DNA of 64,000 bases from an uncultured Clostridia bacterium. Its GTDB lineage: Bacteria; Acidobacteriota; Aminicenantia; UBA2199. Shown piece by piece: positions 4,598 to 53,249 of the stretch. The DNA lies in assembly GCA_964491915.1 (NCBI GenBank), contig CAZBHS010000027.1, positions 2,694 through 66,693 of the forward strand. The letters are read 5' to 3'. The translations under genes and the position numbers were made by a program. Numbering within the stretch: position 1 is the stretch's first letter; every line of letters starts with the position of its first letter. The notes under the pieces were generated by a model that saw nothing but the letters and a program-made list of their open reading frames with translations, did not search any database and was not told the origin of the DNA.

Positions 4598-5160
4598 AAC
4601 ACCACCTCCCGCGTGGTTTTTTGTGAGTGTTTTTTTTCCGCTTCCATCAGCGCTTTTTTCAACTTTTTCCGGGCATTAAATTGATGGACCCTCACCGTAC
4701 TCTCACTACATTCCAGCACCTCGCCGATTTCCCTTGCGGAATAGCCGTCGTTCACATCAAGTACAATAGCGAGATACTCTTTGGGTTTCAGTGTTTTCAA
4801 GTAGGGGCCGAACAAAGCCGACTCTTCGATATCCGTGTTTTTCGGTTGATGGTAGCCGGTCAGATTTCGCGCTTCTCCGGTGAAGAATTTCAGGAAGGAA
4901 TTTCTCTTGCGCAACCGGTCCAGACTCCGTTTCACCACAATCGCCATGATCCAGGTTTTAAAACTACGCCCCATATCAAAACGGCGCAAATTCTTGAACG
5001 CCTGAACCAACGCCTCTTGAACCGCGTCATGAGCCTCGTCTTCGTCTCCCAACAGCCGGCGGGCCATCGCGATCAACCGGCTTTGATACTTGCGCACCAA
5101 TGGAGCGAAGGCTTCGATGTCGCCTGCCAGGCATTCTGCGATTTTCTTTTGTTCCTGCAT
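4594..5160 (-). CDS. ECF-type RNA polymerase sigma-70 family factor
   Basis: 188 aa. Region 2 is DEAHDAVQEALVQAFKNLRRFD...FKTWIMAIVVKRSLDRLRKR and the region 4 HTH is YSAREIGEVLECSESTVRVHQFNARKKL. Confidence 0.9.
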   Translation of the reverse strand: MQEQKKIAECLAGDIEAFAPLVRKYQSRLIAMARRLLGDEDEAHDAVQEALVQAFKNLRRFDMGRSFKTWIMAIVVKRSLDRLRKRNSFLKFFTGEARNLTGYHQPKNTDIEESALFGPYLKTLKPKEYLAIVLDVNDGYSAREIGEVLECSESTVRVHQFNARKKLKKALMEAEKKHSQKTTREVVL

Positions 5161-8634: not shown

Positions 8635-8666
8635 GCCCCCGGTCATCCCGGGGGCCGTTGTTTTTT
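8635..8666 (+). terminator. orphan Rho-independent terminator
   Basis: GCCCCCGG-tcatc-CCGGGGGC followed by cgTTGTTTTTT. No supported ORF lies upstream on the plus strand. Confidence 0.5.
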
Positions 8667-8795
8667 ATATAAAGGGACTTTATATAAAAAAAGGAGGTGA
8701 AACCATTAATATTTTACCATGTTTTTTTTAAATTTCAACCCCTAATGGTATTTTTTTGTAAAAATATTTTTTGGTTTGTTAAATATACAAACAAA

Positions 8796-9905
8796 TCAGT
8801 TTCGCTCCGCTAAAACTTTTCCCAATTTATTTAAAAAATACTCATTATCGGCTTCGATTCCAACCGTGACCCGCATCGCGTTATCAAACCCAAAAGGCTG
8901 AAGTGGACGGATGATCACCCCTTCACGCAAGAGGCTATCATTCAATCGACCAATATCGGTCTCCGGGAAAAACAAAATGAAGTTGGCCTGGGAAGGAATT
9001 GGAGACAGCCCCATATCCTGGAGCTTAGCGAATAAAACCTCTCTATTTTTCGCGTTCAAATCCGCGGATTTCTTTTTAAAATCATCGGATTCTAGAGAAG
9101 CGATGGCTGCCCGCTGGGCCACACGGCTGATGTTAAACGGTGATTTAACCTTGCCGAGATAGAAGATCAAGTCTTTATTCGCAATCGCGTATCCTACTCG
9201 AAGGCCGGCGAGAGCGTAAATCTTGGAGAACGTCCTGAGCACAATTACATTTTTCCGGTTCACGGCAAGCTCAATTCCATCAAGATAACGATCTTCGTCC
9301 AACACATATTCCTGATAGGCGTTGTCCAAAACAACCAATTTATCCTCAGGAACCTCGTCGATAAATTTCATCAGTTCATCTTTTGGGAGCATTGTTCCTG
9401 TGGGGTTATTGGGGTTGGCGATAAAAATAATCTTGGTGTTCTCATCCATCTTGCTCCGGAATCCATCAAGATCATAGCAATACTCATCCGTAATCTCTAC
9501 TTGCGCGAAGCTTTCCTTTCCGCATGCCTCGATACTCGCGATCCTATACATCAAGAATGTTTTATCGGACGTCAATACCGTTTCCCCCGGTTTGAGGAAG
9601 GCCCTCACAATCATTTTGATCACCTCGGAGGAGCCGGGGCTCAGGATCAGATTCTCACTCCGAACATTTAAATAAGAGGCGATTTTTTCTTTAAGATAAT
9701 AGCTATCGGAATCAGGGTAAAAATGCAATGAGCCTAATTCGTCCCGAATAGCATTCGCCACATGACCGGGAATCGGAAATGGATTTTCATTGGAAGCGAG
9801 TTTCACAACTTTGTCAAGGTTATAGGTTCTCTGGATTTCCTCAATTGGCTTCCCCGGTTTGTAAGGACTTAAATCATGTAGATTTGGATTCACTAATTGT
9901 TTCAT
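8796..9905 (-). CDS. hisC: histidinol-phosphate aminotransferase
   Basis: 369 aa with LASNENPFPIP, ANPNNPTG and the PLP-lysine motif RTFSKIYALAGLRVGY. Confidence 0.9.
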   Translation of the reverse strand: MKQLVNPNLHDLSPYKPGKPIEEIQRTYNLDKVVKLASNENPFPIPGHVANAIRDELGSLHFYPDSDSYYLKEKIASYLNVRSENLILSPGSSEVIKMIVRAFLKPGETVLTSDKTFLMYRIASIEACGKESFAQVEITDEYCYDLDGFRSKMDENTKIIFIANPNNPTGTMLPKDELMKFIDEVPEDKLVVLDNAYQEYVLDEDRYLDGIELAVNRKNVIVLRTFSKIYALAGLRVGYAIANKDLIFYLGKVKSPFNISRVAQRAAIASLESDDFKKKSADLNAKNREVLFAKLQDMGLSPIPSQANFILFFPETDIGRLNDSLLREGVIIRPLQPFGFDNAMRVTVGIEADNEYFLNKLGKVLAERN

Positions 9906-13273: not shown

Positions 13274-14134
13274 TTGGAAGATAATAAGATAAATTCAAAT
13301 TTTTCAGATTTGGTTCGCCAGCGCTATTCTTGCCGTTCGTTTTCCGAAGATCCAATCATCCCTGAGATTGTACATATAATCAATAAATACAATTCATCGG
13401 TATCCCCCCCCTTCTACAACGACGTACGTATTTCCTACCTGTCGAGAGAACGTTTGAAAGAGGAAAAATTTTTTACCACCGGCACTTATGGAATGATCAA
13501 AGGTGTGAAAGGATATCTCGTCGGTATAACCGGAACAAAATCCAGTCAGACTTTTGAGAACTTCGGATATTGCATGGAGGAAGCGCTGTTGCGTCTCACC
13601 GCCCTGGGAATAGATACATGTTGGATCGGAGGAGTATTTGACCGCAAAACCTTCGGTCGCTTATTTTCAATCGAAGCAAACGAGATTGTTCCGGCCGTCA
13701 TTGCCATGGGATACGCCTCGCACCACAGAACCTTTCGGGACAAAATTGTCCGGTGGAGCGCTAGAGGAAATCATCGTAAGCCAATGGACCGACTCTTTTT
13801 CGAAAACACCTGCCAAACTCCATTGCGATTAAGTAAAGATTCGCAATTGTATCAACTATTTGAAAATGTACGACTGGCGCCGTCAGCGTCCAACAAGCAG
13901 CCCTGGCGCATAATCAAACAAGACCGCCTACTCCACTTTTTCCTGGATCGGGACAAACTATACAGTAAACTCATTCCCAACGTCGATTTGCAACGTATCG
14001 ACATTGGGGTCGCCCTTTACCACTTTGAAATGTCGGCCCAAGAGGCCGGCGTACACATTTCGAGAGAGACACACGCAAAGCCGCTTCATGTTCCTCGACA
14101 TTTCGAGCATATCATTTCTTACTCCATTGAATAG
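13274..14134 (+). CDS. nitroreductase-family protein
   Basis: Motifs RYSCRSF and LAPSASNKQPWRI. The track start (GTG 13226) lies inside tRNA-Phe, so I placed the start at the in-frame TTG 13274. The start is uncertain; the stop is firm. Confidence 0.7.
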   Translation: MEDNKINSNFSDLVRQRYSCRSFSEDPIIPEIVHIINKYNSSVSPPFYNDVRISYLSRERLKEEKFFTTGTYGMIKGVKGYLVGITGTKSSQTFENFGYCMEEALLRLTALGIDTCWIGGVFDRKTFGRLFSIEANEIVPAVIAMGYASHHRTFRDKIVRWSARGNHRKPMDRLFFENTCQTPLRLSKDSQLYQLFENVRLAPSASNKQPWRIIKQDRLLHFFLDRDKLYSKLIPNVDLQRIDIGVALYHFEMSAQEAGVHISRETHAKPLHVPRHFEHIISYSIE

Positions 14135-42015: not shown

Positions 42016-42094
42016 GTATTTTGAAAGACTCCCTTTCAAAACACCCTTGTATTTCGAAAGGGTAAGTTGCAAAACACCCTTGTATTTTGAAAGG
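42016..42094 (+). repeat. 33-bp-phased direct repeats overlapping the promoter of the AAA ATPase gene
   Basis: CAAAACACCCTTGTATTTCGAAAGG (42037-42061) and CAAAACACCCTTGTATTTTGAAAGG (42070-42094) differ at 1 of 25 positions. A partial copy GTATTTTGAAAG lies at 42016-42027. TATAAT is at 42102-42107 and a TTGTAT -35 sits inside the last repeat. Confidence 0.7.
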
Positions 42095-42128
42095 ATTAGA
42101 GTATAATAGGGAGTGAAAGGAGCGAAAA

Positions 42129-43433
42129 ATGAAGCGGTGGATTGAAAGACAACTGCTGGAATGGAAAGACAGCAAGAGAAGAAAACCCCTCATCTTGAGG
42201 GGAGCCCGGCAAGTGGGAAAGACCTGGAGTGTAAAAAAACTGGGGGCGGACCATTTTGAAAATACCGTCCACATGGATTTAGAGAAAAATCGTCAATTTC
42301 ATTCCCTGTTCGAAGGCGATCTCGATCCAAAAATCATTGTCCAGAACATCGAAGTTCTTTTGAAGACGAAGATAACTTCCGGGAAAACATTGCTGTTCAT
42401 CGACGAGATTCAGAGCTGCCCAAGGGCCATTATGGCGCTTCGATATTTCTACGAGGAGATGCCGCAACTCCATCTGATCGCCGCAGGCTCGCTGCTGGAG
42501 TTCGCTTTATCCGAAATCTCATTTCCCGTCGGCAGAATACAATATCTACACATGACGCCGATGACCTTTTCGGAATATCTAATGGCGATGGGAAACGAAA
42601 AGGCCCTGGAAATCATTCAATACAAACCTCAAAAATTGCCGGAGCCGATCCACCTCTCTCTCCTCAGGGATCTTAAAACATATTTCTTCGTAGGAGGAAT
42701 GCCGGAGAGCGTCAAATCCTTCGTTCAAACCGGCAGTATCGCCGAGTGCTTCAAAATTCATGAAGAGCTTGTCCACTCATTTAAAGACGATTTTGGAAAA
42801 TACGCCGCCCTATCCAACAAAGATTGCCTGGAAGAGATATTTACCAACACCTCCAAAAACATTGGGAATCAACTGGTTTACTCCGGTTTATCCAACACCT
42901 TTTCCCATCCTACGATAAAAAAGGCGTTTGATTTGCTCGTGAAGGCCAGGATGATCAAGAAGGTTGAATCGGTGGGAAAGCTGGAGCTTCCCTTGGATGT
43001 ACAGAGTTCTTCGCGAAAATTCAAGGCCATTATGCTGGACATCGGGATCTGGCAACAATTGAGCGGAATTTCTGTTGAAAACGCGATAGCTGAATCCGAT
43101 TTGATGAACATATACCGTGGGGCGTTGGCTGAGCAATATGTGGGCCAGGAACTGGCGGCCTCCACCGGCGAAAGCCTTTACTATTGGGCCAGAGGCGCCA
43201 AAAGCAGCGCCGCGGAGGTCGATTATATCGTTACAGTAAAAGGAAAAATCTACCCCATCGAGGTGAAAAGCGGCAGTTCAGGCTCGCTAAAAAGTCTCCA
43301 CCTGGCCTTGAAAACCTATCCCGATTGTCCCGGAGGCATCGTCTTTTCAACCAGAGAGTACGGCGAAATCCCAGAGCAAAAACTAACCTTCCTTCCCCTC
43401 TACTACGCCGCCCATTTCACCAATTCCCTCTAG
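42129..43433 (+). CDS. AAA+ ATPase of the AAA_14/DUF4143 type
   Basis: 434 aa with Walker A GARQVGKTW and Walker B LLFIDEIQ, plus a C-terminal restriction-endonuclease-like tail (EVDYIV...IYPIEVKSG). Confidence 0.8.
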   Translation: MKRWIERQLLEWKDSKRRKPLILRGARQVGKTWSVKKLGADHFENTVHMDLEKNRQFHSLFEGDLDPKIIVQNIEVLLKTKITSGKTLLFIDEIQSCPRAIMALRYFYEEMPQLHLIAAGSLLEFALSEISFPVGRIQYLHMTPMTFSEYLMAMGNEKALEIIQYKPQKLPEPIHLSLLRDLKTYFFVGGMPESVKSFVQTGSIAECFKIHEELVHSFKDDFGKYAALSNKDCLEEIFTNTSKNIGNQLVYSGLSNTFSHPTIKKAFDLLVKARMIKKVESVGKLELPLDVQSSSRKFKAIMLDIGIWQQLSGISVENAIAESDLMNIYRGALAEQYVGQELAASTGESLYYWARGAKSSAAEVDYIVTVKGKIYPIEVKSGSSGSLKSLHLALKTYPDCPGGIVFSTREYGEIPEQKLTFLPLYYAAHFTNSL

Positions 43434-43440
43434 GAAATTT

Positions 43441-43549
43441 TATGATGGTCACCCAAATGGTCACCGGGGTGGAGGGGGAATCTGGGGAGGTTGATTATAA
43501 GCGAGCCGATGGGCGGAGTCGAACCGCCGACCTTTTGATTACGAATCAA
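43441..43549 (-). repeat. distal att repeat of the island (displaced 3' part of tRNA-Thr plus flank)
   Basis: 43492-43549 is identical over 58 bp to 52992-53049. A further ~50 bp (43441-43491) aligns with mismatches and one indel to 52934-52991. Confidence 0.85.
43504..43549 (-). pseudogene. tRNA-Thr fragment (positions 28-73 only)
   Basis: It is identical to the 3' 46 nt of the intact tRNA-Thr at 53004-53076. Identity ends inside the anticodon stem, and the 5' half is missing. Confidence 0.85.
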
Positions 43550-43933
43550 GGACACAGTTTTTCGTCCCCTTTCGAGGGGAATAAAAAAACCATTAAATAT
43601 CCGCCATTTCACCCTCACAATCAACCTTTTACCCAAAAGGCCACCAAACAAATTCGCATAGTTAAAAGCAGTAAAAACCACTCTTTTCTCACTTAATATG
43701 ATATAAATTAGCCACCATTTGGACACCAAACGACTAAAGAAACTCCAAACGAACCCAAACGAGAGCCATATTTTTTTCTCTCTATCCTGCCCTATTGGCA
43801 GATTGCAGACAATATTTACCGGTAACCAGTTTTTTCAAAATAATTGAAAAAAAATTCAAAAAAAAAATAAAAACCCGAATTACAGAAGGTCCACCCATAG
43901 AGTCTGAGCAGCCACAAATATATTATAATGTGT

Positions 43934-45799
43934 TCAACGGAAGCTGGTCTTTTCTGTGTCGATCCCTTCAAAGATCAGATAATCAGAAGTTTTGTAATGG
44001 GATACGCTGATATTATAAATCTCGGTTCCTAAATAAACGACTGTTTTTCCTTGATTGATCAGTTGATCTATAAGGTTGAGGAAATGTTTTTCAAAGGGCC
44101 GTGATTCGCCTTTTAGATAATCGTTGATTATAAATGTTTCTCCTTTCGCAAACGTGAGGGACGAGTAGAGTTTTTTCAATAACTCTATAGATGGGTTCGG
44201 CTCTTTCAAATCCATTTCTTTTACATCCAGGGCCTTGAGGTTATCCAGGACCTTGTTTTTTTCTACTTCCAGGATATTGGGGAAGATGTCTATTACTTTT
44301 TGGGGGGCCATTTCAAAACCAAGATCAATCTCCGACATAGAATCCAGGCCTGATATATTGTTTCCCTGGCGAGTTAGAATTTTGAAAACGTTGTTTCGGT
44401 ATTCTTCGTCACGGCACAGCACAAAAAATGAAGTTCCTTTCTTGTATTCCAATTTTGGGCTTCGTTCCTCAAGCGGGATATAATTGAGCGTTTTCTTGAT
44501 TCTGTAGACTGAAATCAGGAGTAGTGCCAAAAGATAGATAATTGTCGTCAAAAGGCCGGGGGGAAAATTCCCGGGTAACTTACTCTGAGCTTTGATGATG
44601 TTTTCTTCGCCACTGAAAAAGGGATCTACGGTTTTATCCTGTTCGACATATCTTTTTTGCACATAGAACGCCAAAAAATTGTCTCTGATTTTTTCAATGG
44701 CTTTTAGAAAATCAATATAACTCAAAAATCCTTCGCTTGATAATTCAGTGGACAAACAATTGTAGAAGGTCGTCGGGAAAATGAACGATATTTTCTCTCG
44801 ATAGTCGATCACAGCGTTCATTTGGTTTTGAAACGCTTTTTCTTTCTGCTTGTTGATTTTATACCCTTCGGTCCAATATTGGATTGACTCTTTCAAGCGA
44901 AGGGCCTTTATTTCCTCATTGGATCCATTTTGGCTTTTTAGGTCCTCGACCTTTCTGTTTATCGCTTGTTGAGCGTCCATTAAATTGGTGATTTTTTCTA
45001 AATGCAACGCCTCTAAAGGTTCAATTGAAGCTGTCCTATTGTAGATGCTCGTCCTGGAAATTTCTGGGATAACAAAAATGAATAATGCCCATACGGCAAT
45101 GGCTACCCAGGTTTTTTTAGTCTTTCTGAATAACGAAAGAAGCAATCCCACCATATAAAAAAACAGGAAGTAGCAAAGCGCAAACATGCAATATCGTAGA
45201 AAATTGCTAGTATCCAATTCTGAAAAGATGATTCCCCTTTCTATAGCAAACAAATAGTTCAAGAAAAAAATAAAGCAAAACGCCGCACTTAAAAAGAGCA
45301 CCCTAAATAAAATCGAAAACAAGACCTTCTTTCTGGTAATTATATGTTCAATAAACTTTGTGCTTCGGAAATTCAAGAATCCCATTATTATCATATACAG
45401 GCTACCTAAAACAAAAAGAATCCCTCCGAAATCCTTCATCTTTCCGTCATCGAATAGGGCGCGCCCCTTGAAGCTCTTTATCGGTTTGATTATCTCGCTA
45501 GTATCGATGTTACTTTCAAGAGTATGGAGAATCTTGTATTTTTCAAAGAAAATCACCAGTGGCGACGGTTCGTATAGAATCCTAAAACCATATCCGCCAT
45601 ATTGATCATAATACATGTATCTAGACACTTTGGCTTTTTCATATCTCAAGAAATCCTGTTTATTCTGCTCAAAATTCTTGTAATCCGTTATCCCGGAATT
45701 TACGAAATAGAGGGTCAAGAACAAGATTATAATAATGGCGGCAATACTTTTTTTGTTGTAGAAAATCCGTAAAAATTCAAATTTAGCGATATCAATCAC
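43934..45799 (-). CDS. island cargo: multi-pass membrane protein (ABC-2-permease-like) fused to a degenerate ABC-ATPase-like C-terminal domain
   Basis: 621 aa. It has an N-terminal TM, a cluster of ~5 TMs (residues ~125-260), a long helical segment and one more TM (~400-420). The soluble tail has Walker-A position LEYKKGTSFFVLCRDEEYRNNVFKIL (no GxxGxGK[ST]) and Walker-B position GETFIINDYLKG...GKTVVYLGTE (no D-E). Confidence 0.6.
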   Translation of the reverse strand: MIDIAKFEFLRIFYNKKSIAAIIIILFLTLYFVNSGITDYKNFEQNKQDFLRYEKAKVSRYMYYDQYGGYGFRILYEPSPLVIFFEKYKILHTLESNIDTSEIIKPIKSFKGRALFDDGKMKDFGGILFVLGSLYMIIMGFLNFRSTKFIEHIITRKKVLFSILFRVLFLSAAFCFIFFLNYLFAIERGIIFSELDTSNFLRYCMFALCYFLFFYMVGLLLSLFRKTKKTWVAIAVWALFIFVIPEISRTSIYNRTASIEPLEALHLEKITNLMDAQQAINRKVEDLKSQNGSNEEIKALRLKESIQYWTEGYKINKQKEKAFQNQMNAVIDYREKISFIFPTTFYNCLSTELSSEGFLSYIDFLKAIEKIRDNFLAFYVQKRYVEQDKTVDPFFSGEENIIKAQSKLPGNFPPGLLTTIIYLLALLLISVYRIKKTLNYIPLEERSPKLEYKKGTSFFVLCRDEEYRNNVFKILTRQGNNISGLDSMSEIDLGFEMAPQKVIDIFPNILEVEKNKVLDNLKALDVKEMDLKEPNPSIELLKKLYSSLTFAKGETFIINDYLKGESRPFEKHFLNLIDQLINQGKTVVYLGTEIYNISVSHYKTSDYLIFEGIDTEKTSFR

Positions 45800-45837
45800 A
45801 GTTCACCATCCTTCCTTTTAAGAGTGTTGTTTAGGAT

Positions 45838-46497
45838 CTACAAGAAAGCCTTTCTCGATAAAACCGTTGAATAATTACCAAATAAGGCGGTTTCGGAAAA
45901 CTTTTGATAAACTGCCCAGTAGAGAGTGATATCCGACTTGATTCCCTTACCGAGGTCATTGGAAATCAACTTTAAAGAATCAAGGATATCATTGAGCTTC
46001 TCCAGGTGACGCCGATAAAGCCCCAGGACATCGCCCTTACTCAAATATCCTTTTACTTCATTCGCTATGATTGAATTTAAATTTTTCTCAATTATCGCCG
46101 AATCATAATCAAAATGCAGCAGCTTGTTTCTGTAAAATTCCACGTACTGGAGTTGTTCGCCCAATGAAATGATCGTGGCATACTTTTCTATTGAAGCTTC
46201 AAGTTTAGCGATCGTGGATTCCAGTTTTTCGCAAGCTGTCCCTAGATTGAAAACAGCTTTTCCCGAACTTTCATACTCTTTTAGCAATAACAATGACTCT
46301 GAATAGGAATCAATAAACAGAGCCGCTCCGTCGATAAGCAAATCACTTATTTCTTCACGTCCACCGGTCAATGCTTGCAACGGTGTATCCGGTGCCGGTG
46401 GGAATATCGGATCAGAATCATTTAAGTGCAAATCCGAGATCAACAAACCTGATGTAGAAACAACGAGAATTAAGAAAAGAATTGCCTTGGTTTTCAT
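45838..46497 (-). CDS. island cargo: secreted all-helical hypothetical protein
   Basis: I set the start at ATG 46497 (MKTKAILFLILVVSTSG, GGAG 9 nt upstream) rather than track start 46539. The stop is 38 nt upstream of the next gene. Confidence 0.6.
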   Translation of the reverse strand: MKTKAILFLILVVSTSGLLISDLHLNDSDPIFPPAPDTPLQALTGGREEISDLLIDGAALFIDSYSESLLLLKEYESSGKAVFNLGTACEKLESTIAKLEASIEKYATIISLGEQLQYVEFYRNKLLHFDYDSAIIEKNLNSIIANEVKGYLSKGDVLGLYRRHLEKLNDILDSLKLISNDLGKGIKSDITLYWAVYQKFSETALFGNYSTVLSRKAFL

Positions 46498-46684
46498 AGC
46501 TGAGACTCCTTTAAAGTTTAGTTTCCTTAGTCGTTTCACCTGATTAGAAAGCGTTCTAGATCCTGAATTATAGCAAGTGGTAAAAATTAATTCAATACTA
46601 CTCCTCCTGTCTTGTAAATTTTTTCATATTTTTAATCTATCAATCTTAAAGCGGGAATTGATATCGTTCATTAGCTCTCGAATA

Positions 46685-47383
46685 TTAGCCAGAAGTAAAA
46701 TCAACCAAATCTTTATCGAGTAGCGGTTTCCACCGTAAGTAAAACTCCGCGATGATGTGTTCTCTAAAATTCGGATATTTCTCCATGTAGTGGAGAAGGT
46801 CTGTATAGCGGTACTCTATGGCTTTACCAGTATAATCTTTCGATATCTGAATAACCGCTTCTTTCTTTTGTGTTGGTTCCAACTTCGGTGTATTTAACTC
46901 TTCTTCGGAGACCTCGCGAATGCTTCCCACCACGTAATCAATGACATACCTTGTAAACCTAATGTCGAAGGTCTTCTTCCCGGAGGGGGTGTCGAAGGTC
47001 TCCCGGAGCCGGTACATTTTTTCGGGATCTATTTTATATGAGTTTATTTCCTTCAATAATCCGGGGGGGAGGATCTCGTCAATCTGAACGGTTTGAGGTG
47101 GTTCCGGTTCGATAAGAGTGATTTTCCATTTTGATAAATCTACCGTATGCAGGTCAAAACGATAAGCTGGAGATGTCGGTCTCTCGTTTTCATAAACTTC
47201 CATTTGCCCATAAGCAATTTCGCGGTATTTTCTTTTTAAATTTCTGATAGCCTTCAGAGGGAATTGATTAATGAACTGGGATTCTCTCAATGTATAAAAT
47301 AAATAGTCACGTGCAGATGGAAGGTCCAATAACTCATCGAACTGCCCCATCAAGTATTCTTTTGATCTTTCATAATCTTCCAT
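46685..47383 (-). CDS. island cargo: hypothetical cytoplasmic protein translationally coupled to an XRE regulator
   Basis: 232 aa with no motif I recognise. The ATG is 3 nt after the stop of the XRE gene 47387-47827. Confidence 0.6.
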   Translation of the reverse strand: MEDYERSKEYLMGQFDELLDLPSARDYLFYTLRESQFINQFPLKAIRNLKRKYREIAYGQMEVYENERPTSPAYRFDLHTVDLSKWKITLIEPEPPQTVQIDEILPPGLLKEINSYKIDPEKMYRLRETFDTPSGKKTFDIRFTRYVIDYVVGSIREVSEEELNTPKLEPTQKKEAVIQISKDYTGKAIEYRYTDLLHYMEKYPNFREHIIAEFYLRWKPLLDKDLVDFTSG

Positions 47384-47386
47384 GTT

Positions 47387-47827
47387 TCACCTCCGATTTA
47401 ATTTTTCAGATAGTACTTTTTCTATATATTCTTGATTGGCTGTTTGGAATTCGATAAAATACTTCAGCATTGAATAACGAACCAAATCTACATGCTTCAT
47501 GGCCTCAAAAAGGTTTTTTACATTCTCTCGCTCCAATCCAAATTCACTTGAAGAGACGATTTGATCCACAAACGCAGCTCCAGTTCCATTTAAAATATAG
47601 TTGATGTTCACTCCGAATTTGTCCAAAAGTGCGAATAGATACCGTGACGACGGTTTTTTGAGTCCATTCTCCGCCTCGGAGATCAAACTTCGGGAAAAGC
47701 CGGTTTGCCGGTACGCTTCTTCGATAGTAAGATGCAACTTTTTCCTAACTTCGCGAAGCCGCCGGCCAATTAATTCTCTATTAAATTGATCTATTTCCAT
47801 TTGCTCATTCGCGTTATTGAGATGCAA
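47387..47827 (-). CDS. XRE-family HTH regulator (paralog 2)
   Basis: 146 aa. The HTH is IGRRLREVRKKLHLTIEEAYRQTGFSRSLISEAENGLKKPSSRYLFALLDKFGVNINYIL. Its C-terminal ~60-aa domain is shared with paralog 1. Confidence 0.85.
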   Translation of the reverse strand: MHLNNANEQMEIDQFNRELIGRRLREVRKKLHLTIEEAYRQTGFSRSLISEAENGLKKPSSRYLFALLDKFGVNINYILNGTGAAFVDQIVSSSEFGLERENVKNLFEAMKHVDLVRYSMLKYFIEFQTANQEYIEKVLSEKLNRR

Positions 47828-47881
47828 TTACGAATAATTATATATCACAATCAATAGAAAAATCAATAGCCTTGAAAATCT

Positions 47882-48298
47882 TTATGCAGACCCTTTGTCG
47901 TCCTCAATCTGATTTCGAATCAATTCATCATATTGGGCTTTGTATTCGAGGAAATATTTAAGGATGGTGAACCTTACCACATCAGCCTTTTTCATATACA
48001 ACAATAGGCTGTGAACAAGTTTTGCGTCCTTCCCGAAGTCTTCAAAAACAAGCTCTTCACCCAAAAACATATCGCCTCGCCCGGACAAAATATAATTCAG
48101 GTTCACTTTAAATAAATCCAACAAGGCGAATAAATAAGTAGAGGACGGTTTCTTCAATCCGTTTTCGGCCTCGGAGATAAGACTACGGGAAAACCCCGTT
48201 GCCTGATACATCTTTTCAATAGTAAGGTTCAAGGTCTCGCGTACCTGGCGAAGACGTTCCCCAACTTCTTCCTGATTTAATTTCGTTTTTTTAGTCAT
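47882..48298 (-). CDS. XRE-family HTH regulator (paralog 1)
   Basis: 138 aa. The HTH is VGERLRQVRETLNLTIEKMYQATGFSRSLISEAENGLKKPSSTYLFALLDLFKVNLNYIL. Confidence 0.85.
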   Translation of the reverse strand: MTKKTKLNQEEVGERLRQVRETLNLTIEKMYQATGFSRSLISEAENGLKKPSSTYLFALLDLFKVNLNYILSGRGDMFLGEELVFEDFGKDAKLVHSLLLYMKKADVVRFTILKYFLEYKAQYDELIRNQIEDDKGSA

Positions 48299-48492
48299 TT
48301 TGTTTGCAAAACCCTTTATCTTATAATATAATTTACAACAATGAGAATATTTAATTTAAATTCGCGGCACTCATTCCGCTTACTTAGAGAATCATACGTT
48401 TCCCTGACGTTCATCTTTTCAAATATACCCTATCAATTGAGAAAAAACAAGTATATAAGCGAAATTCGCGAACAAAGGAGAGTAAACCAATT

Positions 48493-48909
48493 ATGGAAAA
48501 ACATTTTCGCTTAACTATAGACCTGAAGGTGGATATTAAGGAATCGGTGGAAAGGGGAATCAAGAACCGTAACTTGATAGAGGCCTTTGTCAAACAGTTT
48601 TTAGCTGATGACGAGGCGGTCTTGAAATTCTTTCGCATGTGGTTGCGGGATGAATTCAGGACCGGGGATTTGGGGGAGAAAATTTCCGATAGCTTTCCAA
48701 GGGAGCGAGACACCGACATATTACGTCCAGTGGCTGAGGCATGCACTCAAAAAGTGAGAGAACACTTTTTAAACGCCCTTATCACGGAAGAAAAACAGGG
48801 ACATAACGAAAATTACTCAGATTGGGAATGTTTTTTTGAACAGATCCGCTTTTTTGATGTGGAAGGTGTGATTTTCGAGCTGGCGGGAGCGGCAAAAGAG
48901 CATGGTTGA
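48493..48909 (+). CDS. island cargo: hypothetical protein
   Basis: 138 aa, divergent from XRE paralog 1, with AAGGAG upstream of the ATG and no recognisable motif. Confidence 0.5.
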   Translation: MEKHFRLTIDLKVDIKESVERGIKNRNLIEAFVKQFLADDEAVLKFFRMWLRDEFRTGDLGEKISDSFPRERDTDILRPVAEACTQKVREHFLNALITEEKQGHNENYSDWECFFEQIRFFDVEGVIFELAGAAKEHG

Positions 48910-49200
48910 GGTGATTGTAGGATTTAACATAAACCGGCGTAGTCCCACGCCGGATTGTTCCTTTCTCTATTTTAATAACCAAAATAGTTTAAAGCCGGTC
49001 CTCGCAGTTCGCGGGGGCCGGTCATTTCGTTTTGTTCACTCAAACAGACGACTTACTCTAAAACATTCATCGCGGGAGAGAAAAACTTGGTTTCACCTCC
49101 TTTTTTTGATAGCCTCTCGAAGCGGATATTGGGGCCGGGTCCTCAACCTAAGGACCCGGCTCTCATTCCCACAAGCCAAACGTAAAGCAAAGGTGACTGC

Positions 49201-49533
49201 ATGAACAATTCAAAAAACGCCCTAGCGTTCAACCGGAAATCTCCCGAAATCTCAGAGCTACGCAATTCCCTGGCTTTCAATTTGGAGTCAGCAACAATCA
49301 TCGAAGAAGACGACGGTTTCAGATTAGAAGTCCAGCAATCAAAAACCTCTCCCCTCTCAAAATCCTACCCAACTCTCACCCAAGCCCGCCAAGACTTCCT
49401 CAACCGCTATGGAACCCTCACAAATGAAGGAAAACCAACAATCCACCCCCAATGGACCGAATTCTTCACCCCCGACACAGAACCCGACCTGTTAATCCTA
49501 TATATCGTCAATCAAGACCGGATCCCAAAATGA
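49201..49533 (+). CDS. island cargo: hypothetical protein
   Basis: 110 aa. It contains an internal repeat NALAFNRKSPEISELRNSLAFNLES and is followed by a GC-rich hairpin plus T-run near 49685-49720. Confidence 0.45.
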   Translation: MNNSKNALAFNRKSPEISELRNSLAFNLESATIIEEDDGFRLEVQQSKTSPLSKSYPTLTQARQDFLNRYGTLTNEGKPTIHPQWTEFFTPDTEPDLLILYIVNQDRIPK

Positions 49534-49883
49534 TCCCCAGCAAACCCGAACTCCATATTGTTAATTTTTTAGATAGTTCATGAAGGCACGCCGGGCCGCG
49601 CGAGCCCCGACGCAATCGCGGCCCGCCGGCCCACCTTTCTTCCCTTGCAATCCAATCAAAGGATATTTACTTTGATTTTCATCAGCCGGCCTTTCCCCCA
49701 CGGAAGGGCCGGTCTTTTTCCAATCCAACATCGATGACCAAAACCACCACCAACTTCAGCCTTCGGCCCCAACCATAAATAAGCCAAAAAAAACATCACA
49801 CACTACGCAACCTTTCAGGTTAAAGCCTTTCGTCCAAAAAAACCATCACCAAAAAATATACAAGAAAATCACAAACGTTGCAG

Positions 49884-49960
49884 ATGGCACCTTTTATGGC
49901 ACCAAAGAGTGCGATAAGCTTTGCTGTGAAAGGTTATTGTATGGCACCCCAAATGGCACC
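49884..49960 (+). repeat. four phased ATGGCACC direct repeats (two pairs, 12-bp spacing)
   Basis: ATGGCACC occurs at 49884, 49896, 49941 and 49953. The second pair, ATGGCACCCCAAATGGCACC, closely matches ATGGTCACCCAAATGGTCACC at 43445-43465 beside the distal att repeat. Confidence 0.75.
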
Positions 49961-50200
49961 TCGCAAATTCGAGGGAATAATTTCGCAGGAGATTGCGCAC
50001 CGGTCCACATTTTTTACAAGTCCAACAGTTAACCTTTACATTTTTTTTCATACCGCCCTCATCTGAACTCACAAGCATAACACAATTACAAGGCAGAATA
50101 GAAATCCCAAAAAAACACATGGGAAGCTTGAAAATAACACAATTTTAGTATATAAATAATGTAAAAGGGAAAGACAAATTTAAAAATTAGGAGATGCACA

Positions 50201-50437
50201 ATGAATTTGACTGACCACAGAAAATCCAGGACAAAGGGGCGTAGGCTTAAGATTGAGCCTAGCGCACTCTCAGTCCGATTTCACACTTTATCTGGATTTG
50301 AGAAGGAGGTAACTCATGATCAAAAAAAGAAAGTTCTGAGTGAGGCATACTACAACACCGTATCCTTTGCTTTTCGCAAAGGAGTTGGATTTTTCTTTGG
50401 CAAGCCAAGAAAAATAATTCTTAAATTCTCCGCATGA
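50201..50437 (+). CDS. island cargo: small basic hypothetical protein
   Basis: 78 aa with AGGAG 8 nt upstream of the ATG. It is the first of three same-strand small genes. Coding status is uncertain. Confidence 0.35.
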   Translation: MNLTDHRKSRTKGRRLKIEPSALSVRFHTLSGFEKEVTHDQKKKVLSEAYYNTVSFAFRKGVGFFFGKPRKIILKFSA

Positions 50438-50478
50438 AAATTTAAGTTAAGCATCCCTATAAAAATAAGGAGTTTAGC

Positions 50479-50682
50479 ATGCCTAGGTTGACAGTTGAAT
50501 TTACAGATGAAGCGTACAAGCTCTTAGAAAAGATTGCAGAAGAGATGGGCAATTCGAAAAAAGAAGCAATTAAAAGGGCAATTTCACTACTTGGGCTAGC
50601 AATTGAAGAGCAAAAAAACGGGAGTGTTCTTGAATTTGCAAATGAGAAAAAGAACTATAGGCGGGAGATTGCTTTTTTATAG
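50479..50682 (+). CDS. ribbon-helix-helix (CopG/Arc-like) DNA-binding protein
   Basis: 67 aa. MPRLTVEFTDEAYKLLEKIAEEMGNSKKEAIKRAISLL fits the strand-helix-helix pattern. AAGGAG lies upstream. Confidence 0.6.
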   Translation: MPRLTVEFTDEAYKLLEKIAEEMGNSKKEAIKRAISLLGLAIEEQKNGSVLEFANEKKNYRREIAFL

Positions 50683-50747
50683 GATCCTACCTGATTCTAT
50701 AATCAAAACCATCATGCGGATGACTATAGACACAGAGAGGAAACCAA

Positions 50748-51089
50748 ATGAAACATTATTTTGAAGATACTCAAAAATCCGGTCGCGATGGTCAAAGCGG
50801 TGATTCACACTCGCCCGATCATCCTATATTAATTGATGATGTCTATGAGAAGAAAGATATGATCAAGAAAGAAGATGTTTATAGCAGAGCAAAAACACAA
50901 CATCGCCTATCTATGTCCATCGTCTTCTCTCTGGCAATTATCATTTGCACTTTGTTCCTTTCTCTCACCTATTCTTCACCTGAAAATATAGCTGCACTCA
51001 AAGATATTGGTTATCACGCTATTTCAATTTTCTCTACGTTGACAGGTTTGGTTATAGGTTTTTATTTCTGTCAGTCCAACCGTAAATAA
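50748..51089 (+). CDS. small two-TM membrane protein
   Basis: 113 aa with a polar N-terminal half followed by two hydrophobic helices (LSMSIVFSLAIIICTLFLSL; ISIFSTLTGLVIGFYF). GAGAGG lies upstream. Confidence 0.5.
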   Translation: MKHYFEDTQKSGRDGQSGDSHSPDHPILIDDVYEKKDMIKKEDVYSRAKTQHRLSMSIVFSLAIIICTLFLSLTYSSPENIAALKDIGYHAISIFSTLTGLVIGFYFCQSNRK

Positions 51090-51109
51090 CATTTCTGCTT
51101 CTTTTTGTT

Positions 51110-51140
51110 ACGCAGGAGGAATTTCTATTTCCTCCTGCGT
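51110..51140. repeat. 12-bp-stem hairpin between convergent island genes
   Basis: ACGCAGGAGGAA-tttctat-TTCCTCCTGCGT. No U-run follows on either strand. Confidence 0.5.
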
Positions 51141-51223
51141 GGCAAAAAGTGATGGATTGAGTATGATGGTACTATAAAAAGAGTCATTTTTCATTTCAGA
51201 AGGAGCTAAAAAAGCTCCCCCCA

Positions 51224-52240
51224 TCATTCCCAAACTTCGAAGGCGTTTACTAGTTTTTGTTGGCCTTCTAGGAGGGCTTTGGTGTATCTGGAGGTGGTTT
51301 GGATGTCTGAATGCCCGAGTGTTTCTTTTAGGGAGATTAGATCTCCGCCGTTTAGTAGGGCGTAGGTGGCGAAGCAATGTCTAAGGTCGTGGAAGCGGGA
51401 ATCTTTGATTGTGGCTCTTTTTAGGAGCGTATACCATGATTTTTTTATGTCGGTGTAGGGCTTTCCTGTTTTTGGGTTTTCGAATACATAGTCCCGGTTG
51501 TTTTTGTCGGATTGGAGTTTGGCTAGTAATTTTTTTGTGGCGTTGTTGAGTGGTATGCGCCTTAGTTTTTTGGACTTGGTTTTTTGAACGGTTATAAATC
51601 CTTTTTCGACATTCACCTGGCTCCATTTTAGCTTTAGGATTTCTCCTTTTCTCATCCCTGTGTTCAGTGCCACCAGTATGATGTATTTCAAGGGGATTCC
51701 CGCCAGGGCGAGTAACCGTTGAATTTCATTTTCGGTTAGAATTCTCTCTTTCGGCTCTTCTTTGAACATTGGTAATTTGGAGAGGGGGTTGGAATCGAGA
51801 ATTTTCCATTCTACCGCTTTGTTCAAGACACTTCTTAGTAGTGCGCCTTCTCTGTTTACTGTGGTTTTGGACACTAGCTTGTTTTGGTTCTTTGATTTTT
51901 GGTTAAGTCTAATATTGCGGTATTGTTCAAAGTGGAAGGTGGAGATTTCGTGGAGGTCTAGATCTCCCAGGAAGGTGATTAGATTTTTCATGAGGCTGAT
52001 GTCTGTTCCGTAGCTTCGTTTGGTGGGGACTGAGACTTTTTCTAAATAGAACATTGCAAAATTGGAGAATTTCACTTTCTGATGGTCTTCCGGTTCGGTT
52101 TTTTTATTTAATTCCTCAGCCCTCAAAGCTAGTAAAGCTTTCTCGGCTTCCCGCTTATTTTTTGAAACCGGCTTTCTGATTCTTTCGCCATCAACATAAT
52201 AGTCCACCCACCATTTATCATTTTTTTTGAAGAGCCCCAT
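51224..52240 (-). CDS. tyrosine recombinase (phage-type integrase)
   Basis: 338 aa. The C-terminal catalytic region is NTGMRKGEIL...HDLRHCFATYAL...LGHSDIQTTSRYT (R...HxxR...Y). It lies about 760 bp from tRNA-Thr. Confidence 0.9.
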   Translation of the reverse strand: MGLFKKNDKWWVDYYVDGERIRKPVSKNKREAEKALLALRAEELNKKTEPEDHQKVKFSNFAMFYLEKVSVPTKRSYGTDISLMKNLITFLGDLDLHEISTFHFEQYRNIRLNQKSKNQNKLVSKTTVNREGALLRSVLNKAVEWKILDSNPLSKLPMFKEEPKERILTENEIQRLLALAGIPLKYIILVALNTGMRKGEILKLKWSQVNVEKGFITVQKTKSKKLRRIPLNNATKKLLAKLQSDKNNRDYVFENPKTGKPYTDIKKSWYTLLKRATIKDSRFHDLRHCFATYALLNGGDLISLKETLGHSDIQTTSRYTKALLEGQQKLVNAFEVWE

Positions 52241-52243
52241 TTC

Positions 52244-52594
52244 TTAATTCCTTTTTCTGGTCTTCAATTGCTCTAAAAAAAAGTCAAATTGTTGGACAGT
52301 CTTGGTACTAGCGCTTTTTAACTTTGGTAGATTCGGGATTCCAGCGATCATGCTTTCACTTTCAAACTCAATGTCCCCAGGCCTGACAGAATGACAATCA
52401 ATCCAGTCATTTAAGGATACGGGATTGAATTTAACAAGTCCCCCTATCCCTGTCCCAAATTTTACAAAAGGAATTTTCTTTTCTAACACCCAAACTCTGA
52501 TCGTTGATGTTGAAATATTCAAAATCTCTGCGACTTCATCTACATTTAAAAGATTATTCCCAGTAAAAAGCGCCAATTGTACCTCCAGTTTCAT
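52244..52594 (-). CDS. excisionase-family (MerR-like) HTH protein
   Basis: LLNVDEVAEILNISTSTIRVWVLEKKIPFVKFG. I set the start at ATG 52594; the track start 52639 is possible. The stop is 3 nt before the integrase ATG. Confidence 0.7.
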   Translation of the reverse strand: MKLEVQLALFTGNNLLNVDEVAEILNISTSTIRVWVLEKKIPFVKFGTGIGGLVKFNPVSLNDWIDCHSVRPGDIEFESESMIAGIPNLPKLKSASTKTVQQFDFFLEQLKTRKRN

Positions 52595-52933
52595 TTTCAG
52601 TTTCGTCAAAAGCCGGCAAAATAGCCGCTTCAAGAACATTAAACCTTAATACCATATCAGTCTCCAAGATAAAATTTCCCGATATAAATCAATATAATAC
52701 TAGCAAAACCATTTGTCAAGCACCAGTAAACTAGAAGTGCCGAACCTACAATACCATCCCAAACCCTTACTATAAAACACTATTCACAACCTATACAAAA
52801 ACATAGCGCCCACTTATCAAAACACTAAAGCAGACGTATTTGGACGAATGTGAAAGAATTTAAGAGCATCACTTATTGTTAAATATATACCTTTGAAATA
52901 GATGGTCAACTTTTTAGCGAACAGGGTTTTGTT

Positions 52934-53049
52934 ATGGTCACTATTTGGTCACTGAAATGGCCGCCGGAATGGAGGGGGAATCTGGAAAGGCTGATTATAA
53001 GCGAGCCGATGGGCGGAGTCGAACCGCCGACCTTTTGATTACGAATCAA
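52934..53049 (-). repeat. tRNA-proximal att repeat of the island
   Basis: This is the counterpart of 43441-43549. It contains phased ATGGTCAC (52934), TTGGTCAC (52945) and ATGGCCGC (52957), plus ATGGTCAA at 52902. Confidence 0.85.
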
Positions 53050-53076
53050 ACGCTCTACCAACTGAGCTACATCGGC
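53004..53076 (-). tRNA. tRNA-Thr (anticodon CGT)
   Basis: A 73-nt cloverleaf folded by hand on the minus strand: acceptor GCCGATG/CATCGGC, D stem GCTC/GAGC, anticodon stem TTTGA/TCAAA with loop TTCGTAA, T stem GGCGG/CCGCC with loop TTCGACT. Confidence 0.95.
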
Positions 53077-53249
53077 TAACTTTTTGGTAAGCTGTATTAT
53101 ATGCGATTGGGGCGGTTTTGTCAAAGGGGAATCGGAGTTGGCGGGGGATTTTTTTGCCGATATTTCAGGGCTTTTGCATACAAAATTTTTCCGGGGCGTG
53201 CTATAATTTTAGTTCTTAACTACAAAAATTTGATTGCAAAGGGAAAACT

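Follow-up and report, generated by a model that had tools for sequence, protein, structure and literature searches.

An anticodon-centred island in a tRNA-Thr gene of an uncultured bacterium, probably next to the remnant arm of an earlier related element

The stretch analysed here, a window of 64,000 nt from contig CAZBHS010000027.1 of an uncultured bacterium (all positions are counted from the first letter of the window), carries a small integrative island seated in a tRNA-Thr(CGT) gene. The tRNA gene is intact, with its anticodon at 53041-53043 inside a 7-nt anticodon loop (53039-53045), and a copy of its 3' part lies at the far end of the island (Table 1). A repeat finder returned the two ends of the island as a direct repeat of 104 nt with 91% identity, the copies starting exactly 9,500 bp apart. 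When the copies were checked base by base, all 9 mismatches fell within 43453-43491 and a block of 58 bp proved to be perfectly identical (43492-43549 = 52992-53049), the next bases being G in one copy and A in the other. The edge of identity is sharp and lies at tRNA position 28, on the 5' side of the anticodon stem, while in the other direction one extra 11-nt unit (TGGTCACTATT) in the tRNA-side copy carries a weaker similarity on to about 52934. A perfect repeat of 58 bp cannot have arisen within 64 kb by chance, and no further tRNA-Thr fragments were found in the window. The tRNA gene itself is a composite of host DNA in its 5' part (53050-53076) and a 3' part supplied by the island. On the host side, 20 nt 5' of the gene, a promoter scan found a sigma-70 promoter of perfect consensus (TTGACA-17-TATAAT, 53124-53096), and the rebuilt tRNA-Thr therefore retains its native promoter.

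Next to the intact tRNA lie the genes for an excisionase-type helix-turn-helix protein and a tyrosine integrase. The integrase has 932 homologues at E <= 1e-20 in a database search, and in an alignment of 25 sequences its catalytic residues R197, K222, H284, R287, H310 and Y319 are invariant or nearly so. Its AlphaFold model (pLDDT 83.5) begins with a beta-beta-beta-alpha domain over residues 2-47, made of strands 2-6, 9-16 and 19-26 and a helix at 29-47 (pLDDT about 80-88), and full-length lambda Int (1z1b, 5j0n) aligns with the model over 341-347 columns with a TM score of 0.64, at a sequence identity of 16-17%. As modelled, the integrase has the lambda-type three-domain architecture, which is that of an enzyme serving both core and distant arm sites. 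The likely product of the excisionase gene has 110 aa (52244-52576), as called on an independent contig (L081); a promoter-like site lies ahead of the gene at 52719-52691, and its homologues, at 32-55% identity, adjoin related integrases. In four related elements that are described below (L094, L096, L194 and L195) an extra gene of 207-259 aa, belonging to no known family, stands between the excisionase and integrase genes; the window island is without it, and there the excisionase frame ends 3 nt before the start codon of the integrase.

The genes on both sides of the island are ordinary chromosome: HtpG, a sulfatase-TPR protein, an amidase, a DUF362 iron-sulfur protein and an AAA_14/DUF4143 ATPase on the left, and a sodium:alanine symporter, GalT and YraN on the right. 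The GC fraction is 0.394 within the island and 0.467 in the rest of the window, with one GC-richer stretch inside the island at 49-50 kb. Two independent metagenome contigs, L082 and L200, span the distal junction, and L081 is a third that carries the integrase, the excisionase and most of the adjoining arm; all three are 99.6-100% identical to the window. The original prediction, made from the letters of the sequence, had reported an intact minus-strand tRNA-Thr with a displaced copy of its positions 28-73, a perfect identity of 58 bp ending in the anticodon stem, and an imperfect similarity past the tRNA 3' end (43441-43491 vs 52934-52991). ARAGORN, Rfam and the repeat finder confirm the first of these, the base-by-base comparison the second, and the third is borne out at 80% identity over 46 nt. 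Its tyrosine recombinase and excisionase-type gene near the tRNA were recovered with Pfam and PHROGs, the AT-richer interior that it had noticed appears as a compositional break in GC, and its view of the locus as a tRNA-targeting integrative element, in which the 3' part of the tRNA is duplicated and the integrase sits beside the intact gene, is upheld.

The arrangement agrees with the definition of an island in Islander, in that a full tRNA gene is accompanied by its cognate 3' fragment in the same orientation and downstream in the tRNA sense, a tyrosine integrase lies between the two, and the distance of 9,500 bp falls within 2-200 kb. More particularly it resembles the anticodon-centred class 'A', to which 2083 of the 3919 Islander islands belong (Hudson et al. 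2015, PMC4383910), since the integrase is internal, the identity block runs from the anticodon stem to the 3' end of the tRNA and the size is within the usual range. The window departs from that class in its uncultured host, which lies near SM23_31, Aminicenantes and KSB1, in a cargo made up almost entirely of orphan genes, and in a repeat that continues for about 58 nt past the tRNA.

Table 1. Features of the island and of its borders, in window coordinates, from the tRNA end to the distal end
Feature	Position	Strand	Evidence or remark
tRNA-Thr(CGT), intact, integration target	53004-53076	minus	ARAGORN (53003-53076); Rfam RF00005, 76.3 bits vs gathering score 29
tRNA-proximal repeat copy	52946-53049		tRNA positions 28-73, then 12 identical nt past the tRNA and 46 nt at 80%
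Perfect identity block	52992-53049		includes anticodon stem-loop; probable crossover region
Integrase-proximal (P') arm	52903-52991	minus	candidate arm-type integrase-binding sites, by comparison
Excisionase-type HTH_17 gene	52244-52639	minus	PF12728 E 1.8e-11; phrog_66
Tyrosine integrase, 338 aa	51224-52240	minus	PF00589 E 8e-32; phrog_1 E 8.5e-72
Small plus-strand genes	50201-51149	plus	78 aa (50201-50437), 67 aa (50479-50682), 113 aa (50748-51089)
Two genes, function unassigned	49201-49533 (110 aa), 48493-48909 (138 aa)	plus	open reading frames
Two paralogous XRE-type HTH regulators	47882-48298 (138 aa), 47387-47827 (146 aa)	minus	HTH_19/HTH_3; phrog_8
Orphan gene, 232 aa	46685-47383	minus	two homologues only (91%, 84%) among 5.8 billion proteins
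Two-gene cargo cassette	43934-46539	minus	233 aa (45838-46539), then 621 aa (43934-45799)
Candidate site pair, distal (P) arm	43709-43727	minus	GGTGTCCAAATGGTGGCTA on the tRNA strand; about 160 nt from core
Distal repeat copy	43446-43549		displaced tRNA 3' fragment 43504-43549 and flank 43446-43503
Putative relic P' arm of an earlier related element	43441-43503	minus	outside the present island; aligns with the arms of four islands
ATPase gene, AAA_14/DUF4143, abutting the relic	42129-43433		PADLOC PDC-S01 candidate defence family, E 4.5e-142

Comparison with related integrases allowed the sequence past the tRNA to be assigned to the element. The nearest relatives are inserted in other tRNA genes: L096 (integrase 63% identical) is an island of about 8.5 kb in tRNA-Arg(ACG) with a 47-bp perfect repeat that reaches from the anticodon stem to 1 nt past the tRNA, L094 (59%) lies in tRNA-Asn(GTT) and carries type I restriction-modification cargo, L194 (60%) lies in tRNA-Arg(TCT), and L098-L100 and L197 (57-58%) lie in tRNA-Arg(CCT), the integrases of L197 and L099 standing at the end of, or beside, type IV secretion gene sets. 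Small islands, restriction-modification (defence) islands and conjugative elements are thus all served by a single clade of integrases, whose targets include at least five tRNA genes. In the window island, L096, L094 and L194, that is, beside four different tRNAs, about 75 nt past the tRNA end are homologous, sharing a GCCTTTCCAG-like block, a C-rich run and a tandem AGTGACCAAATAGTGACYA placed 45-51 nt past the tRNA end, and in all four this arm is followed by the excisionase and integrase genes. Because the same arm adjoins four different tRNAs, in each case together with a related integrase, it belongs to the element and not to the host. On the tRNA strand the window arm reads GCGGCCA-TTTCA-GTGACCA-AATA-GTGACCA (52964-52935), with a further TTGACCA at 52909-52903.

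In both the window and L096 the motif recurs, in the same orientation, in the opposite arm, which places this second copy about 135-165 nt ahead of the distal core; the GGTGTCCAAATGGTGGCTA of the window aligns with CAGTGACCAAATGGTGACTA at the equivalent position of L096 (9243-9260). About 20 more distant integrase loci each have a tandem 7-8-mer of their own, with a 10-11-bp period, at 40-80 nt past the tRNA. These come from a metagenome profile search for the integrase, in which, among the matches listed, relatives reach at most 42% identity and no close siblings occur, and they show tandem motifs past tRNAs to be general. Such tandem motifs are the pattern expected of arm-type integrase sites, to which the integrase may bind. 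The likeness to lambda extends to the three-domain fold with its N-terminal three-strand-plus-helix domain, to the adjacent excisionase gene and to the tandem direct repeats of about 11-bp period on both sides of the core; the differences are the low sequence identity, the lack of a Pfam arm-binding domain, and a site layout that in the window comes from comparison, not from footprinting. A scan of viral contigs for GTGACCAAATRGTGACYA was uninformative, as it gave 13 matches, approximately the number expected by chance on a rough estimate, 7 of them in one coding family and one lying 64 nt past a tRNA-Arg that has no related integrase.

One relative is found as a circle. L195 (1-9773) encodes an integrase 62% identical to that of the window, and its two ends are identical over 127 bp; the join is crossed by L196, an independent contig, and these findings together establish L195 as a circular element of about 9.6 kb. 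Its attachment site consists of a tRNA-Thr(CGT) 3' half lying between two tandem motif pairs that are about 250 bp apart, so that conserved pairs in both arms are present in the window island, in L096 and in the circular L195. The circle further encodes an excisionase and an MmeI-like restriction-modification gene, and it contains iteron-like repeats of 31-35 bp at 418-684.

The distal end of the window island holds more than the displaced tRNA fragment. Outside the island, the sequence beyond the fragment aligns over the whole of the arm and is 80% identical to the arm of the present island; it reads GGTGACCA-TTTG-GGTGACCA (43465-43446), is without one 11-nt unit, and is further from the consensus of the family than the island's own arm. 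In the host flank of L096 the motif is absent. Since the arm travels with the element beside four tRNAs, the copy at the distal end must also be element-derived, and to judge from this homology it most likely survives from the arm of a related element that held the site before. Clean excision would leave no such scar, and for this reason a deletion is required. The relic ends 8-13 bp from the stop codon of the neighbouring intact ATPase gene, which might itself be leftover cargo of the earlier element. A partial parallel is offered by L199, in which a 56%-identical integrase lies between 146-nt repeats (8653-8798, 13925-14071) of about 80% identity in a 5.3-kb unit. An anticodon-like stem-loop (GTTTGATGAGAACAAAC) occurs in each copy together with the arm motif AACGTGACTAAAACGTGCCTA, so that the repeat runs through the arm motif at both ends as in the window; the site, however, is not a tRNA, none being detectable, and L199 may represent integration into a relic or pseudo-attachment site.

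Taken together, these observations make it probable that the island is an element which a lambda-type integrase inserted into the anticodon-loop region, and that the arm beyond its distal end is the relic of a related predecessor. In its attachment site the element would carry the tRNA from the anticodon stem to the 3' end, and integration would rebuild the gene from the host 5' part and the element 3' part, pushing the original 3' half 9.5 kb away. Strand exchange would take place in or beside the anticodon loop, with the halves of the stem as core sites; we place it there because of the sharp identity boundary and of the behaviour of anticodon-centred islands, an integration class that was reportedly described by Williams in 2002. 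The catalytic and core-binding domains of the integrase would act at the anticodon stem-loop and, by analogy with lambda, its N-terminal domain may reach across to the GTGACCA pairs of the two arms, and the reaction may be tilted toward excision by the HTH_17 protein. As to the order of events, the most economical history would have three steps: the tRNA was first rebuilt by an earlier related element, whose arm came to lie downstream, a deletion then removed all but about 60 bp of that element, and the present element entered the rebuilt tRNA and displaced the relic.

Several points weigh against this reading. At the level of the proteins, the N-terminus of the integrase has no match to an arm-binding domain in Pfam, leaving evidence at the level of the fold alone, and the binding of the integrase to the arm motifs is a proposal read from sequence patterns. 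In the circular L195 the tRNA half runs opposite to the integrase and the motifs, whereas all three share one orientation in the window, and we have no explanation for this. Neither an empty tRNA-Thr site nor a circular junction of this particular element was found, the site being occupied in the window and in both contigs across the distal junction. A search for the empty site by symporter synteny in 185,579 species genomes gave a best match of 77% and no tRNA alongside at any of 14 close loci; the genome nearest by the symporter is 'bacterium SM23_31' (77%), followed by Aminicenantes and KSB1, and the synteny is not conserved. An exact 33-nt pattern joining the tRNA 3' end to its flank had no matches in viral and metagenome collections. 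As for the earlier occupant, the edge of the relic at the ATPase stop codon calls either for a fortunate deletion end-point or for the ATPase to have been the cargo of that occupant, and the 43 kb to the left contain no integrase, excisionase or second tRNA fragment that could have belonged to it, so that prior occupancy rests on about 60 bp of arm homology.

Another explanation accepts the integration signature as real and takes the island to be a fixed remnant in which excision and transfer have ceased. The junction is occupied in all contigs of this population, the searches recognised no gene for transfer, replication or packaging, and the gene of about 207-259 aa that L094, L096, L194 and L195 carry is missing from the window island, all of which would suit an immobile element. 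We nevertheless regard this as unlikely, since the integrase and excisionase frames are intact and the catalytic residues conserved, the cores are identical over 58 bp, the motif pairs are kept in both arms, a promoter-like site precedes the excisionase gene, and a relative of the same size, L195, exists as a free circle. The intact genes, the perfect core, the presence of both arms and the circular sibling instead suggest that the element is, or recently was, active.

The sequence shared beyond the tRNA may also be explained with no earlier element at all, if the whole 104 nt are one long attachment identity block and the present element copied the native flank of the host, either gaining the copy by imprecise excision or needing it for recombination. 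The similarity is continuous with the core and highest beside it, with 12 perfect nucleotides past the tRNA end, and some phages, HP1 among them, are known to have long identity blocks extending beyond tRNA genes. This explanation is improbable for three reasons: the post-tRNA sequence has homologues in arms that adjoin three further tRNA species in different hosts and are invariably accompanied by a related integrase; the family consensus is matched more closely by the arm of the island than by the host-side copy; and L096, the closest relative examined, needs 47 bp only, ending at the tRNA 3' end. The original prediction had left the choice between a previously occupied site and an unusually long core. 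The comparison favours the former, the post-tRNA sequence being a conserved, element-borne arm beside four different tRNAs, and speaks against the latter, as an integrase 63% identical uses a 47-bp block that stops 1 nt past the tRNA.

Re-use of one site by related elements has known counterparts. Tandem accretion and decay at one site is known from ICESt1/ICESt3 and cis-mobilisable elements, reportedly treated by Pavlovic in 2004 and by Bellanger in 2011, and from SXT/R391 arrays; PMC5812530 lists the references. What the window shares with these systems is a rebuilt target that appears to have been used again by a second related element, with older material beyond the distal junction. It differs from them in that about 60 bp of the older arm are all that can be recognised, with no second attachment copy or integrase. 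Given its single tRNA-Thr fragment and single integrase, the window falls outside the tandem-array definition of Islander (PMC4383910), nor is it a cis-mobilisable element bounded by two sites.

A bolder proposal is that the distal junction forms a complete, composite attachment site, in which the P arm of the present island, the core including the tRNA 3' half, and the relic P' arm are combined. These parts are arranged as in the L195 attachment site, the motif pairs being separated by about 250-260 bp. Should the integrase still bind the relic sites, the locus would be a self-renewing landing pad, excision could change and the neighbouring PDC-S01 ATPase gene could be captured or moved in cis. 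We consider this a long shot, as we do the separate suggestion that the cargo pair is an undescribed exclusion or immunity module.

With respect to the class of the element, none of the genes for capsid, terminase, relaxase, type IV secretion, primase or replication was recognised in the island with Pfam, PHROGs, NCBIfam or PADLOC. These negatives support the proposal in the original prediction of a small island that is neither a prophage nor an integrative conjugative element, this support being evidence from absence only. For a prophage, no open reading frame of the island matches a capsid, portal, terminase, tail or lysis family in PHROGs or Pfam, and for an integrative conjugative element the island shows no type IV secretion gene, coupling protein or relaxase. 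It is very improbable that the island is a phage satellite (PICI/P4-like) or a degraded prophage and not a mobilisable island. The integrase, the excisionase, a divergent XRE pair resembling a phage switch and a size in the range of satellites point in that direction, but no primase, replication, capsid, terminase, portal or packaging-redirection gene was found with PHROGs and Pfam, the relatives of the integrase in viral contigs are at most 35% identical, and nearer relatives carry restriction-modification or type IV secretion genes. As in SGI1 (PMC2297512), a small island with integrase and excisionase appears without conjugation machinery of its own, and as with SGI1-type islands the integration module is related to conjugative elements of the same environment; the difference from SGI1 is that no relaxase, origin of transfer or mobilisation gene was recognised in the window island, for which mobilisation is only proposed. 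Because recognisable transfer genes are lacking and the integration module is common to conjugative elements, the island most likely spreads through mobilisation by a helper, which is the least secure of our proposals. That the repeat and the island are an artefact of assembly or binning, a worry that had been voiced about the 58-bp repeat, is barely credible: short contigs of the same samples do break near the tRNA (L083-L085 begin at 53158-53165) and 33 unmatched bases stand at the end of L081, but contigs of 3 samples independently reproduce the distal junction (L082 and L200) and the integrase side (L081) at 99.6-100% identity, and their agreement with the window excludes an assembly artefact.

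The island is therefore real, well delimited and of an ordinary kind, an anticodon-centred tRNA island at what is most likely a re-used site with the fossil arm of a predecessor. It presents a working-looking integration module, with an integrase, an excisionase, an anticodon-loop core and predicted arm sites on both sides, in a poorly known lineage. For the mapping of islands it means that similarity beyond a displaced tRNA fragment can be the fossil of an earlier occupant and not part of the present element or its core, and the place to set island boundaries is therefore the region of the crossover. For biochemistry, concrete substrates are available in the candidate arm motif and in the circular relative.

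Beyond the integration module, the island reads from the tRNA as excisionase, integrase, small plus-strand genes, a stretch with ATGGCACC copies, two genes of unassigned function, the XRE pair, an orphan gene and a two-gene cassette. The three small plus-strand genes, likewise called on L081, form a block convergent with the integrase and are followed by a hairpin (inverted repeat, 51101-51149) facing the end of the integrase gene; the 67-aa product is a ribbon-helix-helix protein (RHH_1, E 6e-6) and the 113-aa product a membrane protein. The plus-strand genes of 138 aa and 110 aa diverge in transcription from the XRE pair; a strong terminator-like hairpin stands behind each of the two (48994-49022 and 49685-49713), and their proteins have no family match in Pfam, PHROGs, NCBIfam or PADLOC. 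The XRE regulators match HTH_19 and HTH_3 with E-values of 1e-10 to 1e-11, and PADLOC, applied to the island genes, gave nothing beyond weak helix-turn-helix matches for these two (RmrA, HTH_VI and capH models). The 232-aa orphan has no family matches, and the 84%-identical one of its homologues (P0136) is encoded on a 13.9-kb JGI contig.

In the cargo cassette the 233-aa protein has an N-terminal hydrophobic segment, and the 621-aa protein is an ABC-2-type membrane protein whose C-terminal domain is nucleotide-binding-like but, as read from the sequence, has no Walker A motif. The family of the latter has 14 detectable members, and its AlphaFold model (pLDDT 82.5) is closest in fold to ABC transporters, with ABCA1/ABCA4 at TM 0.39-0.40. 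The pair recurs in L201, where the homologues of the 233-aa and 621-aa proteins are 49% and 40% identical and are accompanied by an XRE regulator, an integrase and a 55%-identical homologue of the excisionase, so that the pair occurs so far in integrase-bearing contexts only. A role in export, immunity or exclusion is speculation.

Four exact copies of ATGGCACC lie at 49884-49960, where no gene was called, as two tandem pairs of 12-bp period set 57 bp apart, after a terminator and before the small plus-strand operon. These are the only copies in 64 kb (4 against 1.4 expected), and a relaxed tandem pattern matches these pairs and the relic arm only, against 0.01 expected; the reverse complement GGTGCCATTTGGGGTGCCAT resembles the GGTGACCATTTGGGTGACCAT of the relic arm. 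The pairs may be protein-binding iterons or an operator, or they could encode Cys-His repeats of an uncalled 83-aa minus-strand open reading frame (49869-50120).

Near the relic, the JGI contig L200 differs from the window over 3.7 kb solely by a 16-bp deletion (43395-43410), which removes sequence from the final codons of the ATPase gene at about 30 bp from the relic arm; the population thus varies at what is presumed to be the old deletion scar. On the upstream side of the ATPase gene, directly before it at 42016-42095, are about 2.4 copies of a 33-bp direct repeat (GTATTTTGAAAG...CAAAACACCCTT) with internal dyad symmetry; we rejected these as a decayed attachment site, as they overlap a promoter-like TTGCAA...TATAAT and have the look of an operator and promoter, and they are probably an operator. 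A second island at a tRNA-Phe (13177) was likewise considered and rejected, the neighbouring genes being ordinary, and between 42 and 54 kb a search with Rfam at a permissive threshold returned the tRNA as the only non-coding RNA.

The ends of two of the supporting contigs depart from the window. In L081 the terminal 33 nt (1-33) are unmatched, the contig departing from the window past 52913, and in L082 the terminal 53 nt (4833-4885) are unmatched past 44522, the remainder being perfect in both; these ends match no other sequence that was fetched and could stem either from chimerism at the contig ends or from a variant form of the island. Among the relatives, the cargo of L194 (2850-12150) comprises several large genes built of 156-bp tandem repeats with faint to weak DUF5122 matches, together with a Ser/Thr kinase, a STAS protein and an 86-nt intergenic element present in four copies.

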